From the IMG/VR virus record IMGVR_UViG_2874945390_000010, positions 1 through 42,776 of that record: a DNA stretch of 42,776 nt, one strand, 5' to 3'. This document shows positions 21,601 to 24,600 of the stretch, in pieces (position 1 is the first letter of the stretch; the number at the start of each line of letters is the position of its first letter). Made by a program: the position numbers. The DNA comes from a virus. Lineage: Duplodnaviria > Heunggongvirae > Uroviricota > Caudoviricetes.

Positions 21601-24600
21601 CGCTGCCATCGCTGCGCATGACAACTTCCCCGGTCTATTCATTCACCAGCGGAATGACAAAACCAAAAATATTAATAAGGATAAATACATGCCAGTCCAT
21701 CAACTCAATGGGCTGGCCTGCCAGCGCCCCTTTCACATGGGGCACAAATTTGTAGAAATTCAGGATGTGCTGCGCACGGGGTTCACTGAAATAAATCCCC
21801 CGCTCTTCGCCGTACTTCAGATCATCAAGAAAACGCTGGCAGGCCAGACGGACAAATTCGCCAGCGACAATTTCTCCTGCAACAACACGTTCGGCGTAGC
21901 GGATCCCGTCAGCCACTTTTGCCATCAGTCTCTCGCTTTTAAAAGCTCTGCCAGCGGATCAACATCATCCGGTCCGGCGGTATTTACTTTCGCCCGGCTT
22001 GCCGGTGACATACCAAACTCTGCAAGCATCGCCCGGATCCGCTTCCAGGCATCAGCCTTCATCGCAGCAGCCGGGTGTGCCTTGATCAGCACATCGCCAT
22101 TCTGCGTTTCCGTGCGGTAGGTATAACCCTCAACATCGAGTATTTCGCAGTGATGCCGGTATTCGGTGTAGGCTTCCACCAGTAACTCGAGCGCACGTGC
22201 ATCGAGCTGAGAAATGATCCCTTCCGCATTCAACTCTTCCGCCATTCGCCTGAACCAGTACTTCCCCTGTGCCCCTAAATGTTGCGGAATTTTAGGGAGA
22301 CCTTTTTCATCCTTTTTAGCGGTTTTTTTGAGGTCTTTAACGGGGCGCTTTGAGGGGTTGCCTCGTATCAAATGCAGGCGTGGCGGGGTTTTCGGGGGTC
22401 CAGACATAATCGATTTTACCTATCAATCATTAAATCACATTCCAAAAAAAAGTTTTCGAACCTGCGGCGATGCGAGGAAAGGTCAGGCGGCGGTACTGAG
22501 CAGCCAGGGTTGCAGAGATTTGACCCGCCCCTCCCCTACAGATGGGAACTGTTATCAATTGATGCGTTCGCGCGCTGTTTTTGCTTTATGACAGGGCCAG
22601 CACAGACTCTGCAGGTTACTGTCTGCATCCGTGCCACCATGAGCTTTCGGAATGATGTGGTCCACAGTTCTGGCTTCAACGGCTCTCCCATTGCGCAGGC
22701 AGTTCTGACACAGATGATTATCACGCTTCAGTATGCGCGCACGTATGGCATCCCATTTCGAGCCATAGCCACGCTGGTGGCGGCTCAGTCCGCGTTGATG
22801 CTGTACCCATCCTTCGCCACGATGTTTATCGCAGTAACCAGAACTGTCTGTGGTTGTACCTGCACATCCACGCTTACGGCAGGCGCGTGGGATTCGTGAT
22901 GGCATAAATACCTCATACCCTGCGAAATGTTTACCACGATAAAAAGGCTACTTAATGCACTGAGTGCGGATATACTCCTGTGCCCCTTCCAGTTGCATCT
23001 GCATCGTCATCAGCCGCTCTCTGAGGGTGAAATAATCCCGTTCAGCGGTGTCTGCCAGTCGGGGGCTGGTTGCATTATCCACGCCGGAGGCGGTGGTGGC
23101 TTCACGCACTGACTGACAGACTGCTTTGATGTGCAACCGACGACGACCAGCGGCAACATCAGCGCGCAGAGTTTCATTTTCAGCTTTCGCATTGGCTAAT
23201 TCTCTCGAGTACTTTGCATCGAGCGCAGCAACATCACGCTGACGCTGCTGCATGTCAGCGATGGTGGCGATCGCCTGCTTCAGCTCACTGACTTTTTTAT
23301 CACGCTGTTCTTTGTAGGCGATGGCGTTATCACGGTAATGATTGACCGCCCACGACAGGCAGACGATGATGCAAATAACCAGAGCATAAATAATCGCGGC
23401 GACTCTGCTCACTGATCTATCCCCCAACAGGCTAATGCGCTTTCCTGGTCACGACGAATAACCTGTCCATAGCAGTTATTTGAACGTATGCGGCAATCGC
23501 GCCCACCATCTTTTATCCACCAGCGAATCGCCTCGCATGCGCCCTTACGATCACCGGCATTCAGCCGCTTATAAAACGTCGACGGGAAACACTTACCGGG
23601 GCCAATGTTATAGGGACAGAATGATGCGATACCGGCTTTCTGTGGCTCGGTCAGTGGAACTTTTATATTGCGCTCCACCCATGCCAGCGCCTTATCACGC
23701 TCAATGGCATTAACCTGAGCGCATTTTTCCTTCGACAGTTTCATTCCTGGTACGACTGGCTTACCGTCCACCATCGTTGCACCGCGGCAGATGGTCCATA
23801 TGCCGGAACCATCGCGGTATGCCGTAGTGTGGTTACCCTCTTTTTCATCCAGAAACTGGTCAAGTATTTGAGGAGCAGACGCGCCTGCAGCAATCAGCGC
23901 CAGAACAGCAGCTGACAGGCCGTATTTGATTTTTGCGCTCATGGATATTTATCAGGATGCTACCAATGAAAGATACTGGAAAGCCAACTGCAAAAAGCTA
24001 ACAACCCGTAATCGAGTTATCAGAACTGTTAATTTTTATGGTATACCGCGCCTCTGAACAGGGGCGCGTTTGTGGCAACAGCTCGTCCCCTTCACATAAC
24101 CCGGCAGCAACATCCAGGAAGACCTGTCTGATGCTCCTTCTGGCTGCTGCCTCATAAAACTCCAGCGCGGCACCTTCAACACGGTCCAGCGAGATGTCCA
24201 GGCCAAAAATTTCACCGTCAAAGCGTTTTTTGTCCCGTAACGCTAAAGTTACCGTAACTTTATTCTCAAAATTGCGGATCCCTTTCACAATCAGTTCATA
24301 TTTTTGAGTCATTGAATTACTCTCCCCGTGCAGCCTTACGCTTGTCTTCTTTAATCTTGAAATAAAGGTTTGTCAGGTACGTCAGCAGGCCAAATACCAG
24401 GCTACCCAGCACACCTATTGCTGCCCACTGTGAGGGCGTGACTTTATCGAGCAGCTGTAAAAACCAGTAGCCAGCACTGCCTGCGGAGGTGCCGTAGGCA
24501 ATGCCTGTTGAAATTTTGTCCATGGATTTCATAGCCTCACCTCCGCACGGAACGGATGGCATAGTTATTATGTGTAGGCTTTCAGACACATCAATCAGAG

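Follow-up and report, generated by a model that had tools for sequence, protein, structure and literature searches.

What an in-frame amber codon inside a phage large terminase gene (terL) signifies is the question raised by the virus record IMGVR_UViG_2874945390_000010 of IMG/VR, whose 42,776 nucleotides (nt) were analysed over their full length and are referred to here as the window. Such a stop might be an error in one record, the boundary between two genes, a codon that the translation machinery bypasses, or the lesion that inactivated the gene. The element itself is a remnant of a lambdoid prophage that carries the cytolethal distending toxin (CDT) operon cdtABC. We consider it very probable that the stop is an ordinary terL knock-out in a 'grounded' prophage of this kind, inherited vertically and requiring no new mechanism; the phenomenon as such is already known.

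A stop codon within a single terL gene

The plus strand reads CTA at 21635-21637, so that the minus (coding) strand has TAG there. Translation of the minus strand from 21925 to 20168 yields 585 codons interrupted by one stop (...NIFGFVIPLVNE*TGEVVMRSDGSG...), and the TAG is terL codon 97. The original prediction had described open reading frames (ORFs) of 96 and 483 amino acids that share one frame and are separated only by this codon. Translation and the ORF list reproduce its coordinates, the flanking peptides and the common frame (21635..21925 and 20168..21619). A six-frame scan for stops with at least 70 open codons on each side returned, normal gene ends aside, the TAG at 21635-21637 as the only stop between long open stretches (107 and 488 codons) that the coding strand has anywhere in the window. 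The features of the gene are:

20168..21925, minus strand: terL pseudogene, large terminase of the HK97/Terminase_1 type, 585 codons including the internal stop (translation; Pfam TerL_ATPase and TerL_nuclease; match to HK97 TerL, 6z6d)
21635..21637, minus strand: in-frame amber codon, codon 97, ancestrally GAG for Glu (sequence and comparison with relatives)
21638..21925, minus strand: N-terminal fragment of 96 residues, the conserved helical N-terminal region of this TerL subfamily (alignment; AlphaFold2 (AF2) model of an intact relative)
20168..21619, minus strand: C-terminal ORF of 483 residues from the ATG at codon 103, with Walker A, ATPase core and nuclease domain (ORF list; Pfam; alignment)

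The gene has the architecture of a large terminase, an ATPase domain with a Walker A motif and a C-terminal RNase H-like nuclease domain, and its best sequence match is HK97 TerL (6z6d, E=1.4e-35). The 483-residue ORF contains almost all of the Pfam ATPase domain and the entire nuclease domain (PF03354, 96.8 bits; PF20441, 173.5 bits); the 96-residue fragment alone gave no match in a Pfam search. An uninterrupted frame for the whole enzyme is lost from the window copy at codon 97, which makes this terL a pseudogene and not a functional member of the HK97/Terminase_1 type. As in other nonsense pseudogenes, the stop stands in frame at a position where intact orthologues keep a sense codon. The two ORFs are fragments of one interrupted terminase gene, as had been proposed, and should be annotated as one terL pseudogene with an internal stop rather than as two hypothetical genes.

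The ancestral codon is GAG

A megablast search with the 1758 nt of the gene returned 12 phage records at 96.8-97.4% identity and located the gene at 1054 places, spread over 940 of the 5426 complete E. coli genomes. Phages Evi, vB_EcoS-733R4, PhiR49_2 and phi467, as well as E. coli strain 190, each have one annotated 1758-nt 'terminase large subunit' coding sequence, flanked by a P27-family small terminase gene and a portal gene. The original prediction had allowed that the two ORFs might prove to be separate genes in intact relatives. No naturally split terminase with separate ORFs was found in these four phages, in strain 190 or in the fetched loci; terL is there a single 1758-nt ORF, and the fetched loci comprise 67 clean 585-codon ORFs and about 35 copies of a variant that ends at codon 578 and has no earlier stop.

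Comparison with homologous terL genes gives Glu (GAG or GAA) at codon 97 in the intact relatives. Across 135 fetched copies that bear the motif flanking it, the codon is GAA in 62, GAG in 56, GCG in three, CAG in two, GAT in one and TAG in 11; GAG or GAA thus accounts for 118 of the 124 copies without TAG, and a stop occurs nowhere beyond the present lineage and one distant relative, L017 (see below). Sixteen related loci differ from the window across 81 nt at one base only, the first of the codon (T>G), which makes GAG the ancestral codon and a single G>T transversion the lesion. The change sits in GAA-GAG-ACC, outside any homopolymer, and recurs in independent assemblies, which bears out the earlier description of a substitution-type lesion rather than a homopolymer artefact. 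Since GAG can reach only TAG among stops in one step, the 'amber' identity of the codon carries no meaning of its own.

The allele marks a Shigella boydii-type lineage

An 81-nt query centred on codon 97 found 1008 places in the 5426 complete E. coli genomes, none of them identical (best 98.8%, one mismatch). Exact-pattern scans for the TAG context were negative for the GTDB species representatives and for JGI metagenome contigs, and found one contig (L006) in IMG/VR. Exact look-up of the 96-residue product placed it on 57 contigs; among the ten matches listed, nine (L007-L015) carry CTGGTGAATGAATAGACC, and the tenth (L016) is merely a contig end with no TAG. These nine are three complete NCBI genomes (CP026836.1, CP026824.1 and CP027027.1) and six Logan short-read assemblies, so that, with the IMG/VR contig included, ten contigs of different sample origin (L006-L015) share the identical TAG context. 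Across 20,291 nt the window and CP026836.1 (L007) are 100% identical. This accession is named as a Shigella boydii genome (PMC12817139), and the allele is missing from an E. coli-only collection because its carrier is S. boydii.

A sequencing or assembly artefact in a single record can be given next to no credence. The source assembly family does contain indel errors, and one carrier (L008) has many single-G deletions, but the lesion is a substitution and no homopolymer indel, and it is identical in all ten contigs, six of them short-read assemblies. The TAG is a genuine, inherited allele: it is fixed, marks the lineage of a Shigella boydii-type prophage and is not a fresh mutation. As a clean marker for one such lineage, the G>T change has modest practical value.

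Many public draft contigs end within terL codons 90-99, giving 'partial' proteins of 90-99 residues on dozens of contigs (P0003-P0015, L016), and a fragment-based protein homology search with the 96 residues returned only short pieces, mostly such contig-end partials. The many ends at these codons suggest that assembly graphs break at the variable hairpin region in genomes with several related prophages, where it would form a repeat or divergence boundary.

The ten carriers fall into two subclades that are separated by about 15 fixed differences across 11.4 kb. Clade A consists of the window (= L007), L011, L012 and L015, clade B of L006, L008, L009, L010, L013 and L014. Because the TAG is present in both, it predates their split; to judge from this distribution, the mutation is old and vertically inherited. 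Its place in the order of lesions we infer, as the data put the TAG earlier only than the split of the two subclades.

We envisage the following course of events. A single G>T transversion in an ancestor of the Shigella boydii-type lineage changed codon 97 from GAG (Glu) to TAG, and translation would then yield a peptide of 96 residues that ends ahead of Walker A, the ATPase core and the nuclease domain. With no full-length terminase the prophage would be unable to cut or package its own DNA. The allele was subsequently passed on vertically within a 'grounded', cdtABC-carrying lambdoid prophage at serU, while the prophage decayed further through loss of tail genes, frameshifts and insertion sequence (IS) insertions and, probably, neutral drift of its virion genes. 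The base change and its ancestral codon, its recurrence across assemblies, its confinement to one lineage and the later decay are observations; the loss of packaging function is what the interrupted sequence predicts.

Can the stop be bypassed?

Gene callers report two ORFs at this locus, as they would if the terminase were naturally split into two genes or if TAG were a sense codon through reassignment or programmed recoding. Either is barely credible, given the single ORF in every intact relative. TAG is moreover the ordinary stop of at least four neighbouring genes (connector, tail chaperone G, Rz and DUF1327). ARAGORN found no suppressor tRNA in the window, only a tRNA-Ser(CGA) and a tRNA with a CAT anticodon; the former is serU, which we take to be the locus that mutates to the amber suppressor supD by a one-base anticodon change, and its anticodon is the wild-type CGA. 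A search of Rfam at gathering thresholds over window positions 20000-27000 gave an STnc100 small RNA (sRNA) and tRNA only. The stop is not conserved as a recoding signal would be: it is found at none of the 1008 E. coli places, and among the 135 copies only in this lineage and in one distant contig. As to an RNA element that stimulates readthrough, folding of a 121-nt stretch around and downstream of the stop is no more stable than that of shuffled sequences (z = -0.63). Programmed readthrough and a naturally split gene thus fail on every feature tested.

A subtler alternative is that translation restarts at the ATG of codon 103, or that near-cognate tRNAs read the TAG at a low level, giving a two-piece enzyme (residues 1-96 and 103-585) or traces of full-length TerL; an allele of this kind, lying in an inserted hairpin specific to the clade (residues ~93-112), would be tolerated and could recur. 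We regard this as improbable. The ATG is 15 nt past the TAG and is preceded, 6-12 nt upstream, by GGGGAAG, a weak Shine-Dalgarno (SD)-like string as read from the sequence, and the ORF that it opens holds nearly all of the Pfam ATPase domain and the whole nuclease domain. However, the same string is found in intact relatives and has therefore not evolved for restart, and the RNA downstream of the stop is, as noted, unremarkable.

The residues upstream of the stop bear on this alternative as well. In an alignment of 54 sequences, R31, D35, H63, K65, G66, W78 and G88 are invariant within the first 96 residues, and residues ~93-112 are an insertion that is peculiar to the enterobacterial clade and absent from distant homologues, as a tolerated break would favour. 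Walker A (R126, K127, K130) follows downstream of the stop. An intact relative (P0091) was modelled in place of the stop-containing protein. The AF2 model (predicted local distance difference test, pLDDT, 87) has helices at residues 4-16, 23-42, 48-60 and 77-88 and a strand at 89-92, all with pLDDT >90; a confidently modelled hairpin follows, and then the strand that precedes Walker A. Its top solved match in Foldseek is HK97 TerL (6z6d). With six invariant residues (R31, D35, H63, K65, G66 and W78) and a high-confidence strand (89-92) next to the core, the N-terminal fragment looks non-dispensable. Because these 96 residues hold the invariant positions, a restart product would lack a conserved region and even a part of the shorter HK97 enzyme.

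A second TAG at codon 97

The distant relative L017 (ENA metagenome contig ERZ27313994 k141_81460, 713-718; protein hit P0042) carries TAG in frame at the very same position, codon 97 (...PLINE*TGQPVLNERNMPVMVRRYRTAYNEV...), inside the same clade-specific inserted hairpin. Its terL shares 82% protein and about 75% DNA identity with every E. coli-type copy, and its nearest relative found, L139, has CAG at this codon. The TAG of L017 therefore looks like an independent C>T event (CAG>TAG), which speaks for a tolerated stop. A terminase that works as two polypeptides, or that leaks, would explain why an independent TAG persists at the same codon. That nonsense codons are unusually well tolerated in this surface hairpin, which links the conserved N-terminal helices to the ATPase core, with the terminase working as two polypeptides or being throttled by readthrough, we hold to be very improbable.

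How surprising is the coincidence? One step from a stop are 157 of the 585 codons, 27 of them in the ascertainable range (codons 50-170), so that a hit on the same codon has a chance of roughly 1 in 27 to 1 in 157 per event. It is improbable per event but not extraordinary given the dozens of fragments examined, and is probably due to chance. The codon-97 TAG does not recur among more than 1000 E. coli copies or other IMG/VR contigs, and the other terL lesions seen in IMG/VR contigs, six to seven in number, are spread over the gene; both observations argue against a hotspot or a selected site, and likewise against a tolerated stop. L017 also has no restart signal comparable to that of the window. 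CCWGG sites methylated by Dcm are known hotspots for CAG>TAG changes. No CCWGG is present at the site in the window or in L017, as read directly from the sequences, and a mutational hotspot at codon 97 was rejected on this ground and on the lack of recurrence in the E. coli copies.

An exact-pattern scan for relatives of L017 found none in viral contigs and a single match (L138) in JGI metagenomes, which was discarded as a chance match in an unrelated gene. L139 was not counted as a third terL lesion, as its frameshifts (one at an A-run) look like sequencing errors. Only an experimental demonstration of a two-piece or leaky terminase would lend weight to the recurrence at codon 97.

Possible relaxed selection on the virion genes

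Relative to 17 intact relatives, the substitutions private to the terL allele of the window are one nonsense, two missense and 16 synonymous (nonsynonymous-to-synonymous rate ratio, dN/dS, 0.04). Between carriers, the module from HNH to tape measure (HNH, terS, terL, portal, protease, capsid, connectors, tail tube, chaperones and tape measure) has accumulated 17 nonsynonymous and seven synonymous substitutions (corresponding polymorphism ratio, pN/pS, 0.78). The carrier ratio of 17:7 differs from the earlier terL ratio of 2:16 (Fisher p = 1.4e-4). Among carriers the virion module resembles one freed from selection; the pN/pS of 0.78 is compatible with relaxation, if no proof of it. Two clade-B carriers (L008 and L014) share a frameshift in the portal gene at window position 19430, where the window itself has an intact portal gene. 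Virion genes that drift and break would be unexpected if a restarted or leaky terminase kept the phage propagating.

Clade-A carriers also have the exchange W348R (window 20884, terL codon 348), at a position where close relatives invariably have Trp. It was considered as a destructive hit and dropped, because HK97 TerL has Arg at the aligned position.

The prophage is grounded irrespective of terL

The gene order HNH - terS - terL - portal - protease - capsid is that of the relatives, and several morphogenesis genes of the element are missing or disrupted:

22555..22905, minus strand: HNH endonuclease gene, companion of HK97-type terminases (PF01844 on L007; annotated in relatives)
21925..22407, minus strand: terS, P27-family small terminase, intact (PF05119 Terminase_4 on the identical locus L007; annotated in relatives)
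18794..20020, minus strand: portal gene, intact in the window (locus comparison of carriers)
11595..11597, minus strand: deletion junction, ~3.2 kb lost (BLAST against phage vB_EcoS-640R1, L140, joins L140 position 1525 to 4691)
8108..11519, minus strand: tail tip gene J in three ORFs (1-nt deletions near 9572 and 9156, seen as gaps against L140)
6658..8004, minus strand: IS4-family transposase gene between J and lom (PF13006 and PF01609; similarity to L140 is interrupted there)
30383..31414, plus strand: transposase gene of the early region, 343 residues (PF13358 DDE_3 and helix-turn-helix domains; also in carriers L007-L009)
41796..41885, minus strand: tRNA-Ser(CGA), serU, with wild-type anticodon (ARAGORN; between the integrase gene and mtfA at the prophage end)
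1..2215, minus strand: cdtA, cdtB and cdtC, complete cargo operon for CDT (PF03498 CDtoxinA twice, PF03372)

The loss of ~3.2 kb relative to vB_EcoS-640R1 covers the end of the tape-measure gene H, all of M, L and K and nearly all of I, and the Pfam domains of J are spread across ORFs of 655, 139 and 346 residues; the J frameshifts could in part be long-read assembly errors. The tape-measure gene has a 1-nt deletion at 12923. With essential morphogenesis genes missing or disrupted and IS insertions present, the element has the hallmarks of a grounded prophage, and its gene content indicates that it could not form infectious particles even if terL were intact. The original interpretation, an amber lesion that would block packaging unless suppressed, is supported, although the block has no practical consequence in a prophage that is also without tail genes M, L, K and I and has a frameshifted J and IS insertions.

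Several observations weigh against a simple knock-out followed by decay. Reinitiation at the ATG 15 nt downstream, with its weak SD-like string, is possible, and natural UAG readthrough is never zero. An independent TAG at codon 97 in L017 is unexpected under pure chance. Very recent polymorphism within a lineage and the weak purifying selection of Shigella also raise the ratio of nonsynonymous to synonymous changes. Frameshifts in long-read assemblies may partly be errors, as the many single-G deletions of L008 illustrate. The tape-measure deletion at 12923 occurs only in the complete-genome assemblies L007 (= window) and L008 and is absent from short-read relatives; it may be an assembly error or strain-specific.

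The same integrase, tRNA-Ser and mtfA arrangement is found in E. coli strain 190, and the position points to an attachment site at serU. At the distal prophage end, cdtABC adjoins the tail-fibre and tail-fibre-assembly genes. The DDE_3 transposase gene (30383-31414), which we take to belong to the IS630 family, is inverted in the clade-B carriers L008 and L009 relative to the window, which suggests an IS-mediated rearrangement. An Rfam match to the STnc100 sRNA (110 bits) lies at 25869-26059 on the minus strand. The phage-borne tRNA with the CAT anticodon (26220-26295, minus strand) stands between the Q antiterminator gene and the lysis genes; ARAGORN calls it tRNA-Met, but the equivalent gene is annotated as tRNA-Ile in strain 190. 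The Q-type antiterminator ORF (26661-27260, minus strand) encodes 199 residues in the window versus 273 in L009 and 239 in L008, so the protein may be shortened in the subclade of the window.

Beyond annotation the amber codon has little significance: the prophage is to be treated as non-inducible, and the TAG, along with several other lesions, should prevent the cdtABC operon from spreading by phage particles of the element's own making.

Comparison with known systems

The terminase itself is closest to that of HK97 (PDB 6z6d), in which R56, K57 and K60 are the Walker A residues (PMC9410871). Both have ATPase and nuclease domains, a Walker A of the form R-K-x-x-K (R126, K127 and K130 in the window) and HNH and small-terminase neighbours. 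Unlike HK97 TerL, the subfamily of the window has about 70 extra N-terminal residues and an inserted hairpin of about 20 residues, which holds the amber codon, and the gene is interrupted.

Laboratory amber (sus/am) terminase mutants such as lambda A-am are lethal for packaging in a non-suppressing host and can be rescued by supD, supE or supF. The window terL resembles them in its early TAG nonsense codon, which is expected to be lethal for packaging, and differs in that its allele is natural, fixed in wild isolates and accompanied by no evident suppressor, in a phage whose remaining parts are defective too. Translational restarts after early nonsense codons are known from lacI and T4 rIIB. 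An early stop followed by a close in-frame ATG with a weak ribosome-binding-like string is common to these cases and the window; in the window, unlike in lacI and T4 rIIB, restart and a working truncated product are a lead for the improbable two-piece or leaky terminase.

The closest parallel to the element as a whole is found among lambdoid prophages of E. coli and Shigella that have become cryptic or 'grounded' but retain a virulence cargo, CDT-carrying remnants among them; the general concept has been reviewed (PMC6379469). Like them, the present prophage lies beside a tRNA gene (serU), has a mosaic lambdoid gene order with cdtABC next to the tail-fibre genes, shows morphogenesis genes that are point-mutated, deleted or IS-interrupted, and is inherited vertically within a host lineage. 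We see no fundamental difference from such prophages; what sets this one apart is that its terL knock-out is a clean single-base amber common to two subclades.

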